Sequence record: PV287714.1
Direction: 5' to 3' (one strand)
Source of the DNA: Escherichia phage HMD-9
DNA: 64,000 bases
In this document: piece by piece, positions 24,562 through 38,674 of the stretch
Numbering within the stretch: the stretch's first letter is position 1
How the letters are laid out: each line of letters begins with the position of its first letter
Made by a program: the position numbers and the translations under genes
Notes under the pieces: generated by a model
Told to the model about the DNA's origin: nothing
The model's input: the letters and a program-made list of their open reading frames with translations, nothing else
The model's database searches: none

Positions 24562-25143
24562 CTAACCGAGCTTTTTAGTTAATTCATTCCAATGTTTTCT
24601 GCACAAAGAAACATAAATTTCATCACCAATACAGATTTGATTACCTTCTTTAACTGGTGTTCCATCTTCCATTAATCGAGCTGTCATAATAGCTTTTTTA
24701 CCACAATGACAAACTGCTTTTAGTTCAATAAGTTTATCTGCAATCGCCAAAAGTTCTTTAGAACCTTCAAATAATTTTCCAGCGAAATCAGTCCTTAGCC
24801 CATAAGCCATAACAGGAACATTATATGTATCAACAATTCGGCTTAATTGATGCACCTGTTCAGTTTTTAAAAACTGAGCTTCATCTACAAATACGCAATG
24901 AATATCTTTTTGTGCTTCAGCCCATTTATAGAACTCAAAAATATCCATATCATCCGTAATAATATTCGCTTCCTGTTTAATTCCAATGCGAGAAACGACT
25001 TCACAAACAGAATCGCGAGTATCAATAGCAGGTTTAAGAACTAATACACCCATTCCGCGTTCTTTATAATTATGCGCAGCAGTTAAAAGAGAAGCAGATT
25101 TTCCAGCATTCATTGCTGCATAAGTAAAAATTAAACTCGCCAT
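24562..25143 (-). CDS. tk: thymidine kinase
   Basis: 193 aa; P-loop AAMNAGKSA, zinc-binding CHCGKKA...C; matches recalled T4 Tk. Confidence 0.92.
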   Translation of the reverse strand: MASLIFTYAAMNAGKSASLLTAAHNYKERGMGVLVLKPAIDTRDSVCEVVSRIGIKQEANIITDDMDIFEFYKWAEAQKDIHCVFVDEAQFLKTEQVHQLSRIVDTYNVPVMAYGLRTDFAGKLFEGSKELLAIADKLIELKAVCHCGKKAIMTARLMEDGTPVKEGNQICIGDEIYVSLCRKHWNELTKKLG

Positions 25144-31828: not shown

Positions 31829-32631
<803 letters not shown>

Positions 32632-33087
32632 TTAAAAGAGGCTGTTCATTATTCGGTAAAGTGAAGGACCCATCACATATTGCCACTGAGTACGAGGAAT
32701 AAGAGCAAAAGCGTCCATCTCTGGAATCATAACGCCATCTTTATTTTCAAAATAAGACTCACAATGGCAATTTCTAAACATCTCATGCTCTACTGGAATC
32801 GTATAATAAAATAACTGTAAGTCTTTATTACTAGAATATTTAAATACACCTAGGTCTTCTAGAAGGTCTGGATTATAATTGCTAAAACCAGTCTCTTCTA
32901 AGCATTCTCTTCGTGCTGCATCTAGTGCGCTTAAATCAGAGTTTTCTACGCGACCCTTTGGAATATCCCAGCGATGTGCCATCATTCCAGGCTTACGAGA
33001 ACCAGTAACCCGACCCATAAATAAATCTTTATCTTCTGTCATAAAGATAATACCAGCTGATAAGGGTTTCATTTTAATTTCCTGCAT
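32632..33087 (-). CDS. nudE: Nudix hydrolase
   Basis: 151 aa; Nudix box GRVENSDLSALDAARRECLEETGF; position upstream of e as T4 e.1. Confidence 0.85.
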   Translation of the reverse strand: MQEIKMKPLSAGIIFMTEDKDLFMGRVTGSRKPGMMAHRWDIPKGRVENSDLSALDAARRECLEETGFSNYNPDLLEDLGVFKYSSNKDLQLFYYTIPVEHEMFRNCHCESYFENKDGVMIPEMDAFALIPRTQWQYVMGPSLYRIMNSLF

Positions 33088-33557
33088 TCAGTGATAAAGT
33101 TATTTAAATTTTGAGCATATTTCTTTTCATCAAAAATCTTTTGCTGTCTGCGTAAACGCCATGGCATTTCAATGAACATACGCCATATTCCTGATAATAC
33201 TGCTGCTGTAAAAATATTAACAAGTATAGTTAAAAGAATCCAATCGCCTATTCTGTCCATTGGATTTTTTATAAAAAAGTAAAATACGAATGATGATATA
33301 GGAAGACTAATGATATACCACAGAAGAACCTTCTTATCTGTGAACCAATCAGCATTTGTTAACTTAGCGCAACCATTTTGAATACACACGAATTTATCAT
33401 CTGTTACAGTAAATGGCTTAGCTGCTTGATATCCCATTCTAAACTCCCTAATTAATCGTTTCTTTGTATCTTCGGAACAACCATTCCAGTCAACTCTATC
33501 AACTGGAATGCCATCATCCCCATCATCTAAATCATACCAGCGAGTTTTTAAAATCAT
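33069..33557 (-). CDS. 2-TM membrane protein, tandem family member (C-terminus ...FITECRKLK)
   Basis: 162 aa; two hydrophobic helices then basic tail. Confidence 0.55.
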   Translation of the reverse strand: MILKTRWYDLDDGDDGIPVDRVDWNGCSEDTKKRLIREFRMGYQAAKPFTVTDDKFVCIQNGCAKLTNADWFTDKKVLLWYIISLPISSFVFYFFIKNPMDRIGDWILLTILVNIFTAAVLSGIWRMFIEMPWRLRRQQKIFDEKKYAQNLNNFITECRKLK

Positions 33558-33916
33558 TTAATTTTCCTACAATCACTCACAAACTCTTTCACTGATTCAT
33601 TTTCAATATAAGACATGTAGTTGTTATATTCTTTTAATTGTATTTTGTAATCCTTTTTTCTTTGCCAATTTATTTTAAAATTATCATAATGAAAATATAA
33701 TATAATACCAAAAAATGAAAACAATGAAATAATTTTGGTATAGTGAAGTTCACTCCAAACTTCTGTTATATTTACTGTGCCGTCGATGTTTAAAATAAGA
33801 CAGTCAATTAACAATCCAAAAAGACTACCCGCAAGAGCTGCAGCCAACGCCACAGCAAAAATTAAAAATGACTCAGGAAGCGAATATTTGACTTTATTTA
33901 GTTTTGGCTTTTGCAT
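33554..33916 (-). CDS. 2-TM membrane protein, tandem family member (C-terminus ...FVSDCRKIK)
   Basis: ORF track 120 aa. Confidence 0.55.
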   Translation of the reverse strand: MQKPKLNKVKYSLPESFLIFAVALAAALAGSLFGLLIDCLILNIDGTVNITEVWSELHYTKIISLFSFFGIILYFHYDNFKINWQRKKDYKIQLKEYNNYMSYIENESVKEFVSDCRKIK

Positions 33917-34311
33917 CGTGATTCCTTAACAAATTTCATAATTTCATCAAATTCATACATATCAAGTTTAAGCTGGTGTTCCTTTTTAATCTTTTTACAC
34001 TGTGCTTTCCAATCACGTACGCGTTTACGATAATGTCTTCCTTGATACCAGTATCCTACCCAATTTACAGGTACTAATAAAAATGGAATTATTAATGGAA
34101 GAATTAGCATTAACACAAGTATTTCACCAGAATCAATATCAGTCATAACATCTAAAACACCTCCAATAATCAATAGAATTACAAATGATATGAGTATAAC
34201 AGGACCTATTAACACATCAGTAGGAATTAGCTGGCGCTTTAGTTCATACTTCAAAGGTTTACTTGGAAGGTATAGTGATGGCTTTGACATATTCTCTACA
34301 TTCCTTAACAA
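33898..34311 (-). CDS. 2-TM membrane protein, tandem family member (C-terminus ...FVKESRCKSQN)
   Basis: ORF track 137 aa. Confidence 0.55.
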   Translation of the reverse strand: MLRNVENMSKPSLYLPSKPLKYELKRQLIPTDVLIGPVILISFVILLIIGGVLDVMTDIDSGEILVLMLILPLIIPFLLVPVNWVGYWYQGRHYRKRVRDWKAQCKKIKKEHQLKLDMYEFDEIMKFVKESRCKSQN

Positions 34312-34867
34312 ATTTTTCTAGTAATAAATCGCTTTCAAAACTAGGATTTTCCACGAATTTATCAAAAAGATCATCAACAATATTCAAGATATTCCTTTTA
34401 CTAAGAATACATTTATTTTCATGCTTCGTTTCAGAGTCAATTATAAGAGTAAAGAAATATTTCTTTCCCTGAAATTTTACTGTAGTATCAATATAAAATA
34501 AATTTGACTTTTGTAAATTACGTTTAAACCATGCGTCGCTTAAACTATAAACACCGAGATAATCAAAATCGTCGTTTAAATAACAAACTGACCATTCAGG
34601 AGAAATGAAATCAGTAAATTCAACATCAAAATCACATGTTAATGAATGAATTGATTCAATACTTTTAATGAGTATTCCAGGGCGTATTAAAGACTTTTTA
34701 CCTCTGGAAAATCTTCCAGAAAGACTTTCATCAGTTTCATATGAAGACCCCCAATAATAATTACGTCCTTCTGCCATACGTTTAAGAGCATTTAGTAATT
34801 GATCTGGAACATCAACATGTCTTTTGAACTCTTCAAACATTGAATTGAAATCACTTTGCATTTTCAT
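34259..34867 (-). CDS. soluble protein sharing the family C-terminal motif (...FVKECREYVK)
   Basis: ORF track 202 aa. Confidence 0.55.
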   Translation of the reverse strand: MKMQSDFNSMFEEFKRHVDVPDQLLNALKRMAEGRNYYWGSSYETDESLSGRFSRGKKSLIRPGILIKSIESIHSLTCDFDVEFTDFISPEWSVCYLNDDFDYLGVYSLSDAWFKRNLQKSNLFYIDTTVKFQGKKYFFTLIIDSETKHENKCILSKRNILNIVDDLFDKFVENPSFESDLLLEKFVKECREYVKAITIPSK

Positions 34868-34888
34868 TCCTATTTACTCCAAGTAATA

Positions 34889-34902
34889 GGGGCCGAAGCC
34901 CC
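34889..34902 (-). terminator. GC stem-loop (GGGGC-UUCG-GCCCC) after coiled-coil gene; weak U-run
   Basis: ggggccgaagcccc at 34889-34902. Confidence 0.35.
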
Positions 34903-34908
34903 TTATCA

Positions 34909-35502
34909 TTATTTCAGAGAATTAATATATTCCTGGACATCGGCAGAGGTAGTTTCAACCCCAGAAATATTGCCGTTAAAAGTTTCAACTCGAGCAAGGG
35001 TATCTTCAATATCAACCTTAGTCAGTGCTGCAATTTCAACTACATCATCGGCAGTACTAATTCCAAGGGCATTTGCCGCACGAGTTTCACGGATATATTC
35101 CAATTTAACTGCAAGTTCTTGGCGAGCATCATCTAACTCAACTACTTTCTTGGCGATTTCAATTCGCATTTCAGCATAACCGTCAGCTTTAGTAGTCAAT
35201 TGCTCAGCTGTTCGACGATATAGCAAACCGAGTTTAGCGTGCATTGTTACATCTTGACCTTCGGAAAGAAGTTTACGAATTTCACGCTCTTTTGATTCGG
35301 CTTGTCGATTCTTTTCAATAACAAGTTCACGAATACGTTTTTCTTCATTAATAGATTTAACAGAAGCAGTTTTTAAGTCTTTAATCTTATCAAGTAGTTT
35401 TGCTGCTGCAGCAGTATACTGTTCTTCAACAGATAGATTTTTAGCCATAGCAGAACCAAGTTTAGTGCGAATAAACTCAACAATTTTCTTCAGTGTGTTC
35501 AT
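34909..35502 (-). CDS. coiled-coil protein of unknown function
   Basis: 197 aa; heptad-rich, E/K/R/A-rich. Confidence 0.55.
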
Positions 35503-36296: not shown

Positions 36297-36860
36297 TTAT
36301 TTGCTTAGTTTAGTTATTATAGCTTCTGCGGCAGCTTTTAGCTTAGATGCGGTGTTAATACGATTTTTAATTTCAGTATACGCATCGCCAAGAACATCAA
36401 GGCTATCAGAATAAACACTTACACTATTGCGTTCGCTATTTGAAATAGAACCTTTAGTTTTACGATCAAAATCGGTATACACGTCTTGAAGATCGCGGGC
36501 TGCCTTCTTTGCATCATCCAATGCGTCAAGAGCTTTATTCAAAGCATTAACATATTTTTTAGTGTCAAACATATTCTTAGAAATTTTAACAGGTGCACGT
36601 TCAGGAGTAGCTAATGCAGATTTAGGAACCTGAGCGCCAGATGCCAATTTCTTAGAAATTTTGAAAAATGCTTTATTGAATTTATTTTCTTGACTCATTG
36701 TAAAAGAACTATTATCGATGTTGTACATTTCAATAGCTTTAGCTTTCCACTTAAGAAAATCGCCGCGGTCTTTTGGATCCAAGTGGAAGAATACTTTAGT
36801 AAGATCTGCTTCAGATGGTAATTTTGCTGCTTCGGTTAAAAATTCGGCATAGGTTTTCAT
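36297..36860 (-). CDS. internal-protein-like, capsid-targeting N-terminus
   Basis: 187 aa; N-terminal MKTYAEFLTEA. Confidence 0.65.
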   Translation of the reverse strand: MKTYAEFLTEAAKLPSEADLTKVFFHLDPKDRGDFLKWKAKAIEMYNIDNSSFTMSQENKFNKAFFKISKKLASGAQVPKSALATPERAPVKISKNMFDTKKYVNALNKALDALDDAKKAARDLQDVYTDFDRKTKGSISNSERNSVSVYSDSLDVLGDAYTEIKNRINTASKLKAAAEAIITKLSK

Positions 36861-37536: not shown

Positions 37537-37846
37537 AAGCCTTGCGGCAACCTTGTCGGGGTTCCACCTGCTAAGGCAAGTGTTTGTACGAAACGCCGGG
37601 ATTCGAACCCGGTTATTAAGCAGTTGACGCTACTCAATATTTTAAAAGGCCATATCTCGACCATATCCGAACGTTCCGTCAAAAACGCTACTCGGCTTAC
37701 GGCAAAGATATTTCCTCGAATCGATAATTCGGTGCGCCGTTTCAGCTGTGATAGTAAAGAACCAGAACACAGTAAAACTGTGGGAGGAACTATACTCCAT
37801 GGAACATCAGTCCGACGACTTACCGGTAGCGACCCGGTTTCTTGTT
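37537..37846 (-). ncRNA. putative stable small RNA(s) downstream of tRNA-Arg (T4 species-1/2 RNA-like), with tRNA-like T-arm/acceptor element at 37588-37678
   Basis: No ORF; T-arm-like CCGGGTTCGAATCCCGG and 7-bp acceptor-like pairing but no canonical D/anticodon arms. Confidence 0.4.
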
Positions 37847-37922
37847 TGGTCGAGGCAGTAGGGGTCGAACCTACGACCTAGGACTTAGAAGGTCCTTGCT
37901 CTTCCTTCTGAGCTATGCCTCG
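37847..37922 (-). tRNA. tRNA-Arg (anticodon TCT), CCA encoded
   Basis: Manual fold: acceptor CGAGGCA/TGCCTCG, D-arm GCTC..GAGC, anticodon loop CTTCTAA, T-loop TTCGACC. Confidence 0.8.
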
Positions 37923-37926
37923 GATT

Positions 37927-38001
37927 TGGCGGACATGCATGGATTCGAACCATGGACCAATTGATTAACAGTCAACTGCTCTACCACTGAGCTACACATC
38001 C
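37927..38001 (-). tRNA. tRNA-Asn (anticodon GTT), CCA encoded
   Basis: Manual fold: acceptor with two G-U pairs, D-arm GCTCAGTGGTAGAGC, anticodon loop CTGTTAA, T-loop TTCGAAT. Confidence 0.7.
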
Positions 38002-38005
38002 AAAT

Positions 38006-38092
38006 TGGTGGGGAGTGATGGAGTCGAACCACCCGAGTCGCAATGACAATGGATTTACAGTCCACACCGCTACCTCTACGGGATAACTCCCC
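38006..38092 (-). tRNA. tRNA-Tyr (anticodon GTA), long variable arm, CCA encoded
   Basis: Manual fold: acceptor GGGGAGT/ACTCCCC, anticodon loop CTGTAAA, T-loop TTCGACT. Confidence 0.7.
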
Positions 38093-38101
38093 TAATTAAT
38101 T

Positions 38102-38176
38102 TGGTGGCCCTGGGTGGAATTGAACCACCATCTGGCGATTATGAGTCGCTTGCTTGAACCTTCCAGCTACAGGGCC
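38102..38176 (-). tRNA. tRNA with CAT anticodon (Met, or Ile if lysidine-modified), CCA encoded
   Basis: Manual fold: acceptor GGCCCTG/CAGGGCC, anticodon loop CTCATAA, T-loop TTCAATT. Confidence 0.7.
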
Positions 38177-38177
38177 T

Positions 38178-38253
38178 TGGTGCTGATTGACGGAATCGAA
38201 CCGCCGACCTTCTCATTACAAGTGAGTTGCTCTACCTACTGAGCTAAATCAGC
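38178..38253 (-). tRNA. tRNA-Thr (anticodon TGT), CCA encoded
   Basis: Manual fold: acceptor GCTGATT/AATCAGC, anticodon loop CTTGTAA, T-loop TTCGATT. Confidence 0.8.
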
Positions 38254-38258
38254 AAAAC

Positions 38259-38348
38259 TGGCGGAGGCGATAGGATTTGAACCTATGAGTCGCCGGAGCG
38301 ACTGCCGGTTTTCAAGACCGGTGCATTAAACCACTCTGCCACGCCTCC
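38259..38348 (-). tRNA. tRNA-Ser (anticodon TGA), long variable arm, CCA encoded
   Basis: GGAGGCGTGGCAGAGTGG...anticodon loop CTTGAAA...TTCAAATCC; matches recalled T4 tRNA-Ser. Confidence 0.85.
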
Positions 38349-38350
38349 AG

Positions 38351-38424
38351 TCTCCGTGGCAGGATTTGAACCTGCGACATTCTGCTCCCAAAGCAGACGC
38401 TCTACCAAACTGAGCTACACGGAG
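38351..38424 (-). tRNA. tRNA-Pro (anticodon TGG), no encoded CCA
   Basis: Manual fold: acceptor CTCCGTG/CACGGAG, anticodon loop TTTGGGA; 2-nt spacer to tRNA-Ser. Confidence 0.8.
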
Positions 38425-38434
38425 TAAATTAAAT

Positions 38435-38508
<74 letters not shown>

Positions 38509-38513
38509 AAATT

Positions 38514-38600
38514 TGGTGCGAGAAGTGGGACTCGAACCCACAAGGAAATCATTCCGCAGCATTTTAAGTGCTGTGCCTTTACCAATTTGACCATTCTCGC
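38514..38600 (-). tRNA. tRNA-Leu (anticodon TAA), long variable arm, CCA encoded
   Basis: GCGAGAATGGTCAAATTGGTAAAGGCACAGCACTTAAAATGCTG... matches recalled T4 tRNA-Leu. Confidence 0.88.
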
Positions 38601-38601
38601 G

Positions 38602-38674
38602 CTGGGAATAAAGGACTCGAACCTTTGCATCTAGCAGTCAAAGTGCTATGCCTTACCAACTTGGCTAATTCCCA
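38602..38674 (-). tRNA. tRNA-Gln (anticodon TTG), no encoded CCA, 1-nt spacer to tRNA-Leu
   Basis: TGGGAATTAGCCAAGTTGGTAAGGCATAGCACTTTGACTGCT...; Gln-Leu dimer arrangement as recalled for T4. Confidence 0.85.

Follow-up and report, generated by a model that had tools for sequence, protein, structure and literature searches.

The proteins encoded by four overlapping genes of Escherichia phage HMD-9 – namely e.5, e.4, e.3 and e.2 – were found to share a short C-terminal tail, F-[I/V]-x-x-C-R or a close variant of it, which is carried by protein bodies that are only in part related to one another. The genes are located on the minus strand of a 64,000-nt stretch of a Tequatrovirus (T4-like) genome (sequence record PV287714.1; this whole stretch is called the window below). 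Based on the sequence analysis reported here, the reading that we tentatively prefer is that the tail acts as a cytoplasmic docking helix, which would link fast-diverging accessory proteins to one candidate partner.

The four tails were located exactly where an earlier sequence-only reading of this DNA had placed them, and with the sequences that it quoted (FVKECREYVK, FVKESRCK, FVSDCRKIK and FITECRKLK). All positions are given on the minus strand. The gene e.5 (34259..34867), as deduced from the open reading frame (ORF) and the T4 and RB14 annotation, encodes a protein of 202 amino acid residues with the tail ...FVKECREYVKAITIPSK; in RB14, the annotation starts this gene at a second ATG (34861). 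The tail motif of e.5 is F186-V-K-E-C-R191 (34295..34312), the end of which lies 7 nt upstream of the ATG of e.4. The gene e.4 (33898..34290) encodes a protein of 130 residues, when counted from the ATG annotated in other phage records, with the tail ...FVKESRCKSQN and the terminal motif F120-V-K-E-S-R125, then C126 (33916..33933). The e.3 protein (33554..33916; 120 residues, tail ...FVSDCRKIK) carries F112-V-S-D-C-R117 (33566..33583), and the e.2 protein (33069..33557; 162 residues, tail ...FITECRKLK) carries F154-I-T-E-C-R159 (33081..33098). The four proteins were assigned to phrog_2607 (e.5, E = 5e-107), phrog_2604 (e.4, E = 2e-70), phrog_2330 (e.3, E = 3e-59) and phrog_2203 (e.2, E = 1e-75). 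A second, internal copy of the motif was observed in residues 90–101 of e.4 (VRDWKAQCKKIK), where W94-K-A-Q-C-K99 is followed by KIK (33994..34011). This tail-like segment was aligned with the tails of e.3 and e.2 by MAFFT; when residues 83–101 of e.4 and 143–161 of e.2 were compared by hhalign, they formed the top match, which was weak (E = 0.05–0.12).

Six-frame translation of the 64 kb yielded six occurrences of the pattern F[IVL]x[ED][CSI]R, among them the four tails of e.2–e.5. According to the amino acid frequencies of the window, the probability that a protein carries the motif by chance within its final 17 residues is ~1e-4. When the profiles of the families were compared, the tails were aligned in register (E = 2e-6 for e.3/e.2, 7e-5 for e.5/e.3 and for e.5/e.2, and 0.003 for e.4/e.5), and the control profile comparisons with e.6 and nudE gave E = 0.3–0.9. 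By these comparisons the likeness of the tails of e.2–e.5, which the sequence-only reading had noted, is above chance. The same reading had treated the four genes as a single family, and this part of it stood only for some members. The e.3 and e.4 proteins are paralogous over their full length (Smith–Waterman z = 6.3; family-profile hhalign E = 3.5e-5 over 108 columns), and e.3 also matched the e.4 family phrog_2604 (E = 0.0024). The likeness of e.2 and e.5 to the other members was limited to the last 12–15 residues: the profile alignment of e.2 with e.3 and e.4 was confined to the tail, and e.5 without its tail showed no significant similarity to the other three (E = 0.4–0.7). The tail is thus common to all four, and the full-length relationship holds for e.3 and e.4.

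Kyte–Doolittle hydropathy analysis agreed with the earlier count of three proteins with two transmembrane (TM) segments and one soluble protein, given that two TM segments each were found in e.4, e.3 and e.2 and none in e.5. The e.4 protein is a predicted N-in/C-in inner-membrane hairpin (TM ~26–46 and 57–79), and e.3 is likewise an inner-membrane hairpin (TM ~17–43 and 61–76). In e.2, an acidic N-terminal cytoplasmic domain (residues 1–75) is followed by a hairpin (TM ~76–97 and 105–130) and then by the tail. The termini of e.4 and e.3 are net positive and their short loops net negative, and the C-terminal segment is strongly basic in e.4, e.3 and e.2. Since this charge distribution obeys the positive-inside rule, both termini of the three membrane proteins, and hence their tails, are predicted to be cytoplasmic. 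The periplasmic loops of the hairpins comprise just 7–17 residues.

The tail was also found at the ends of distant orthologues. The RB69 proteins end with ...NFIKECRK (e.3), ...FVKEIRCKSLNS (e.4) and ...FIMECREYVK (e.5), and e.2 of VR7 keeps ...SFIEECRK at an overall identity of ~30%. Among all 12-residue windows, the tail was the most conserved in e.2 (rank 1 of 151) and ranked 4 of 119 in e.4; in both proteins the TM and loop segments varied most, and the tail and the juxtamembrane segment were among the most constant parts. To guard against circularity, the conservation of each position was counted over distinct tails by a leave-one-out procedure. Arg followed [FW][IV]xxC in 59 of 66 tails, Cys was present at its own position in 59 of 90, Phe at position 0 in 55 of 62, and Ile at position +1 in 51 of 64. 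The codons of these residues were mixed: TTT (39) and TTC (20) for Phe, ATT (32), ATC (14) and ATA (8) for Ile, TGC (33) and TGT (30) for Cys, and AGA (19), AGG (17), CGT (15), CGA (9) and CGC (3) for Arg. Because synonymous codons vary freely (Arg is written with five codons) and the motif survives at ~30% identity of the bodies, the sequence comparison indicates that the motif is selected as a peptide. The weighted logo of the tail was [L/F/I]-[E/D/N]-x-F-[I/V]-x-x-C-R, followed by 0–11 mostly basic residues, and its hydrophobic positions (−3, 0, +1 and +4) have a helix-like spacing.

To locate equivalent arrays in other phages, nudE, the conserved gene downstream of e.2, was used as an anchor, and 70 nudE loci from IMG/VR were surveyed. 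The motif [FWY][IVL]xxCR was present within the last 16 residues of 80 of the 1,697 ORFs on the same strand as nudE, vs none of the 1,210 ORFs on the opposite strand. The tail was found in every locus with a nudE at least 54% identical to that of the window, and nearly all loci below this identity lacked it. In Karamvirus, four tandem genes end with FIDDCRRARK, FITECRGKK, FISKCRTKR and FIQGIRGER, the first three being predicted to encode two TM segments and the fourth scored with one. Two tandem membrane proteins of Marfavirus, scored with two and three TM segments, end with WIKGCRK and WVKGCRK, and no tail carriers were found upstream of nudE in Slopekvirus. When the tails were removed, the carriers fell into 25 BLAST clusters, two of which were judged to be chance matches, and a more sensitive comparison merged some of them. 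The e.2 family phrog_2203 matched the Karamvirus and Marfavirus carriers over the half that comprises the TM segments and the tail (E = 2e-5 and 5e-6), and the e.5 families phrog_2607 and phrog_13418 matched soluble carriers of 186 and 270 residues. Proteins resembling e.3 and e.4 were likewise among the carriers. Soluble carriers of ~95 residues were found in several genera (phrog_32323 and phrog_20096). The starts of two of these short proteins (locus L050, 449–736; locus L043, 2168–2455) resemble the N-terminal extension of the 270-residue e.5-like carriers (L047, 1489–2301; L038, 638–1459), all reading M-x-I-F-x-[KN]-D..., which suggests a loss or gain of domains with the tail kept.

Apart from the tails of e.2, e.3 and e.5, the generalised motif was found at the C-terminus of only one protein in the window, and of none in positions 1–50,000 of T4. 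The protein in question has 193 residues (24562–25143, minus strand), is probably a thymidine kinase by its length, and ends with ...YVSLCRKHWNELTKKLG (YVSLCRKHW...). Its motif was judged to be a chance match; the same protein gave the only match in the distant locus L061, which calls for caution in motif scans. The e.2 gene with its tail was present in Gaprivervirus and Dhakavirus, in which no e.3, e.4 or e.5 was detected by tblastn. Because e.2 keeps its tail where the others were not found, the partner of the tail is probably not another member of the array. An exhaustive hidden Markov model (HMM) search of 1.84 billion representatives with a profile of the two TM segments plus tail recovered six proteins, all of them e.2, e.3 or e.4 of T-even phages; the Karamvirus and Marfavirus carriers were missed by this search because only the short tail is in common. 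Word-indexed homologue searches returned close T-even relatives only, and scans of e.2–e.5 and e.6 against Pfam, NCBIfam and PADLOC gave nothing significant. As far as these sequence searches reach, the carrier bodies are confined to the T4-type phage group. The GenBank names "sulfurtransferase" and "DNA primase" on orthologues of e.3 and e.4, and "host specificity protein" on e.6, were supported by no profile search and were taken as propagated mis-annotation.

The early expression that the sequence-only reading had supposed was borne out by published data on T4, in which e.2–e.6 give early RNA and were all detected as protein (PMC9697503 supplements); the e.3 protein of T4 accumulates late instead of disappearing (PMC9697503 supplements). 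No late promoter (TATAAATA) was found upstream of the array in the window, the two nearest being located at 32609 and 32622, between nudE and e, and no MotA box was found near the array. A MotA-dependent middle promoter or a late promoter as the driver of the array was consequently rejected, neither being nearby. When T4 genes were knocked down in a screen based on CRISPR interference through antisense RNA targeting (CRISPRi-ART), e.2–e.6 were all scored "Not Fit", that is, with no fitness cost on knockdown (PMC11879866 supplements); the same screen also scored the essential gene e "Not Fit", and therefore has false negatives (PMC11879866). The genes are already known as T4 orphan genes. A literature search by gene name returned no paper on the function of e.2–e.5, and no description was found of the common tail or of its spread over genera and superfamilies.

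Structure models were obtained with AlphaFold2 (AF2). The e.5 model showed an alpha/beta fold of low confidence (predicted local distance difference test, pLDDT, 58.5; predicted TM-score, pTM, 0.63), with the tail within the last helix (residues 181–196). No match to this model was found in the PDB by Foldseek, and in BFVD only uncharacterised proteins of other T4-like phages were matched (14–18% identity). A role of e.5 as a nucleotidyltransferase or alarmone synthetase, which the names of the best Foldseek matches and the presence of a DxD motif had brought up, was rejected given that a conserved G[GS] motif was missing and the TM-scores were ~0.2. The e.2 model (pLDDT 50) showed helices at residues 71–97 and 103–160, the second of which is long and continues into the tail.

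The following role is proposed for the tail. A single early transcript would carry the overlapping genes e.5, e.4, e.3 and e.2, which would be coupled in translation. The element that their products share is a C-terminal motif of ~10 residues, predicted to be cytoplasmic and helical, with the pattern hydrophobic-[E/D]-x-F-[I/V]-x-x-C-R and then 1–11 mostly basic residues. This motif is attached to different bodies, namely the paralogous hairpins of e.3 and e.4, another hairpin with an N-terminal domain in e.2, and a putative soluble alpha/beta protein in e.5. As a docking or recognition helix, the tail may bring these fast-diversifying and dispensable accessory proteins, most of which would be anchored in the inner membrane, to one cytoplasmic partner, either a host protein or a conserved phage protein. 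A more far-reaching version, which we consider possible and distinctly more doubtful, is that F-[I/V]-x-x-C-R is a portable address tag of T-even phages: a single hub (a cytoplasmic or membrane-associated host machine, or e.6) would read the helix and thereby receive inner-membrane hairpins, e.5-like soluble domains and domains of ~95 residues, and recombination at the junction of the tail and the ribosome-binding site would add new bodies to this repertoire.

Several points weigh against the docking helix. The hydrophobic moment of the tail was only moderately above that of shuffled sequences, 8–17% of which equalled it. The motif is not absolute, as e.4 has Ser or Ile in place of the Cys and a Cys two residues further on. 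The survey spanned ~4.5 kb on each side of nudE, and the specificity of the tail for this locus rests on the window and on positions 1–50,000 of T4. The AF2 models of e.5 and e.2 are both of low confidence (pLDDT 58 and 50), that of e.2 being too poor for a structure search. Moreover, the tail codons mostly overlap the next ribosome-binding site, a signal that could explain part of the conservation, especially that of K, E, R and G around C-R. This last point leads to an explanation that dispenses with any function of the peptide, and which we regard as unlikely, according to which the tail is the footprint of a duplicated gene junction, kept as the initiation region of the next gene and as a crossover point. 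Each tail does overlap such a region. The codons AAG GAA (K-E) of the e.4 tail form the Shine–Dalgarno sequence of e.3, the start codon of which lies inside the R-C codons (CG-ATG-C); the codons AGG AAA (R-K) serve in the same way for e.2 in the e.3 tail and for nudE in the e.2 tail, both genes starting in an ATGA overlap. An exact 16-nt repeat (AAATTTGTTAAGGAAT) is common to the e.5/e.4 and e.4/e.3 junctions, and the N-termini that follow these two junctions are alike (MSKPSL and MQKPKL; z = 5.5 vs shuffles). Because of the repeat, the similar N-termini and the internal tail of e.4, the arrangement would fit a tandem duplication with its left breakpoint in the e.5 tail. Among 77 junctions, most had the Cys codon 4–13 nt before the following ATG, and one contig without e.2 (IMGVR_UViG_2974787500; loci L010 and L024) carries a hybrid e.3/e.2 tail. 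However, the third codon positions are free at F, I, C and R, with Arg drawn from two codon families, and the motif is kept across genera whose bodies have diverged to the identity given above. The Shine–Dalgarno sequence of the next gene, furthermore, is found variously in the x-x before Cys, after Arg or past the stop codon, while F, I, C and R stay constant, and the motif is kept where a separate Shine–Dalgarno sequence follows the stop codon (loci L039, L056 and L063). Constraint at the RNA level probably explains part of the conservation around C-R.

The remaining explanations accept a function of the proteins and differ in what it would be. The sequence-only reading had suggested a family for superinfection exclusion or envelope modification. 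Such a family would be comparable to T4 Imm, and the early expression, small size, two TM segments in the inner membrane, dispensability in the laboratory and variable copy number between phages are all in line with it, as is the high variability of the TM and loop segments, which would be expected for contact with the entry machinery of other phages. We nevertheless hold this to be rather improbable: no sequence relation to Imm or Sp was found, the conserved element is predicted to face the cytoplasm and not the periplasm or envelope, where the loops are very short, the soluble e.5 and its relatives carry the same tail, and the literature searched by gene name contained no experimental exclusion phenotype. 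It is slightly less probable still that the tail recruits the array proteins to e.6, which might be PspA/IM30-like, and so forms a phage module for maintenance of the inner membrane. A BLASTP comparison of e.6 with Escherichia coli PspA gave E = 0.015 over 153 collinear residues, in a single comparison for which an approximate PspA sequence was used; no match of e.6 to Pfam PspA_IM30 was found at E ≤ 1, nor any sequence match in the PDB. The gene e.6, which is also early, belongs almost to the core of T4-like genomes, with 1,106 phage records that extend to phages of Aeromonas and Klebsiella. It is present in genera represented among the tail carriers, namely Mosigvirus (RB69), Dhakavirus (WG01) and those of a Cronobacter phage and Klebsiella phage F48, but it is also found in phages without tail carriers near nudE (RB43-like). 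Two other roles are less likely. The basic tail might be a signal for a host AAA+ protease (ClpXP or FtsH), timing the removal of the proteins or letting them act as decoys, and the tails are indeed terminal, cytoplasmic by prediction and rich in K/R at the end, where they resemble the basic C-terminal ClpX signal of MuA. T4 manipulates host proteases, with PinA directed against Lon (T4 annotation). Such a signal is nonetheless hard to believe, in view of a conserved core (F, I, C, R) that is not a known degron, of residues after Arg that vary in both number and sequence, and of the late accumulation of the e.3 protein in T4. Least credible is a role as holin- or antiholin-like regulators of lysis beside the endolysin gene e. 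The topology and the charged cytoplasmic C-terminus are like those of class II holins, and the genes are located 0.5–2.3 kb upstream of e; the RNA is early, however, the only late promoters lie between nudE and e, neither Pfam nor PHROGs gave a match to a holin family, and knockdown had no effect on fitness. T4 already has the holin T and the antiholin RI.

Rearrangements of the array were observed in several related phages. In the contig with the hybrid tail, e.5 is truncated, and the junction left by the loss of e.2 lies in the tail, at the boundary of the tail and the ribosome-binding site. In phage vB_EcoM-UFV11 (L017, 2514–2834; protein P0098), e.3 is lost and e.4 and e.2 are joined in frame inside TM1 to form a chimera, and one Mosigvirus-like contig is without e.3. 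The array thus gains, loses and fuses members, in line with the dispensability of the genes. The e.2 gene is intact in the window and broken in the T4 reference (L006, 4311–4799), where the annotated ORF stops after 102 residues; the remainder can be read by a frame shift out and back, that is, with two compensating frameshifts relative to the window, which are either real mutations or old sequencing errors. In RB69, at the place occupied by e.2 in T4-type phages (L004, 4495–5085), the products of three consecutive small ORFs, ORF138c, 137c and 136c, were found to have another common C-terminal tail, GWV[AS]SSxxC followed by the stop codon (EGAWVSSPALC, GGWVASSHTC and QGWVSSSYSC), and thus represent a second case of neighbouring genes with a common tail.

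The array is embedded in a block of genes on one strand, transcribed in the order e.6, e.5, e.4, e.3, e.2, nudE and e (names from the RB14 and T4 records). The tandem, overlapping arrangement noted earlier was confirmed, with overlaps of 32 nt (e.5/e.4), 19 nt (e.4/e.3) and 4 nt (e.3/e.2); e.2 and nudE also overlap by 4 nt. Both the gene order and the overlaps are those of RB14 and T4. A 3-kb stretch of the region showed 96% nucleotide identity to Escherichia phage vB_Eco-B1.1, and 644 phage records were matched. The e.2–e.5 proteins are 85–96% identical to their T4 orthologues, which are annotated as "hypothetical" or "predicted membrane protein", and their four PHROGs carry no function label. 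In UniProt, e.2, e.3, e.4 and e.5 correspond to P32273, P32274, P39222 and P39223, with the precomputed Pfam assignments PF26896, none, PF26873 and PF26876, respectively.

Immediately upstream of the array, e.6 (34909..35502, minus strand) encodes a conserved helical protein of 197 residues without the tail. Between e.6 and e.5 there is a GC-rich hairpin with a UUCG loop (34888..34903, minus strand), labelled as a terminator in phage e11/2, and it delimits on the upstream side the block e.5-e.4-e.3-e.2-nudE, in which translation is coupled. On the downstream side, nudE (32632..33072, minus strand) encodes a Nudix hydrolase (Pfam NUDIX, E = 1e-13). Two starts of nudE are possible (33072–33087, minus strand), the ATG of the ATGA overlap at 33072 (146 residues) and an in-frame ATG 15 nt upstream (151 residues), which is the start in the T4 record; the upstream ATG is built from the E-C codons (GA-ATG-C) of the e.2 tail. 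Eleven tRNA genes were located at 37586–38674 (minus strand), for Lys, Arg-UCU, Asn, Tyr, Met/Ile-CAU, Thr, Ser, Pro, Gly, Leu and Gln, three more than the eight of T4; at 94 nt, the predicted tRNA-Lys gene is of unusual length. The Arg-UCU tRNA is consistent with the heavy usage of AGA and AGG, including that in the tail codons.

About half of the T4 genes are without a known function, and most of these are located in plastic regions like the e.2–e.5 locus. The tail offers an experimental handle on such genes, as a peptide of 10–15 residues (e.g., QNLNNFITECRKLK) could serve as bait and lends itself to mutation or transplantation. Should the tail recruit its bodies to one partner, identification of this partner would at once place in a pathway both e.2–e.5 and the related genes of Mosigvirus, Dhakavirus, Gaprivervirus, Karamvirus and Marfavirus. 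The growth and shrinkage of packed phage arrays through recombination at coding junctions that double as ribosome-binding sites is also illustrated by this locus. Were the tail a mere relic of such a junction, it would still serve as a marker of cassette borders and as a warning for motif-based annotation.

Among the known systems, T4 Imm, which blocks the entry of DNA from superinfecting T-even phages, is similar in that it is small, early and not needed for growth, and has two TM helices in the inner membrane. It acts through binding the tape measure protein of the incoming phage (bioRxiv 10.64898/2026.03.06.709160). With 83 residues, Imm has almost no cytoplasmic tail, whereas the conserved part of e.2–e.4 is a C-terminus of 30–50 residues, predicted to be cytoplasmic, which has its tail in common with soluble proteins. 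Smith–Waterman comparison of e.2–e.5 with T4 Imm gave z = 0.1–2.5, reflecting TM composition only, and no Pfam match was found at E ≤ 1. Spackle (Sp), an inhibitor of the gp5 lysozyme, has a signal peptide and is secreted to the periplasm; e.2–e.5, in contrast, have no signal-peptide architecture and their termini are predicted to be cytoplasmic. The comparison of e.4 with Sp gave z = 3.5, which was equalled by 1 of 300 shuffles and was put down to hydrophobic composition, and the other three gave z = −1.2 to 0.4. Class II holins share with e.2–e.4 the two TM helices, the N-in/C-in topology, the charged cytoplasmic C-terminus and the proximity to an endolysin gene, but they are expressed late, together with the endolysin, and not early as is the case here, and e.2–e.4 match no holin family.

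As a short peptide module that is placed on unrelated T4 bodies as an address, the capsid targeting sequence (CTS) of the T4 internal proteins is comparable to the tail. The CTS, however, is found at the N-terminus, where the prohead protease cuts it at [LI]xE, whereas the tail is C-terminal and often has another residue (G, S, K, M or Y) in place of E at its fourth position, and the invariant C-R is missing from the CTS. Two ORFs of the window (31829–32125 and 36297–36860, minus strand) start with a CTS, one of them reading MKTYAEFLTE, and the EF[LI]xE core echoes some of the tails; this likeness was put down to coincidence, since residues other than E are frequent at position 4 of the tail. 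A reading of the tail as a substrate of the prohead protease ([IV]xE, then C) was rejected given that many families have a residue other than E at the fourth position.

At the level of the locus, the array resembles the promoter early stem-loop (PeSL) cassettes, in which short border repeats in plastic regions of T4-like phages accompany the gain, loss and replacement of small ORFs (PMC2839356, PMC4122927). The e.2-loss junction of L010/L024 inside the repeated tail agrees with this likeness, while the UFV11 junction lies in TM1 and not in the tail. A PeSL is a non-coding promoter and hairpin between genes, whereas the repeat described here is coding, is selected as a peptide and overlaps a ribosome-binding site; from e.5 to e.2 no intergenic space, promoter or hairpin was found between the genes, the only hairpin being that upstream of e.5. 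In the address-tag version of the proposal, the tail would be a phage-internal counterpart of the shared signals by which the effector repertoires of secretion systems are marked.

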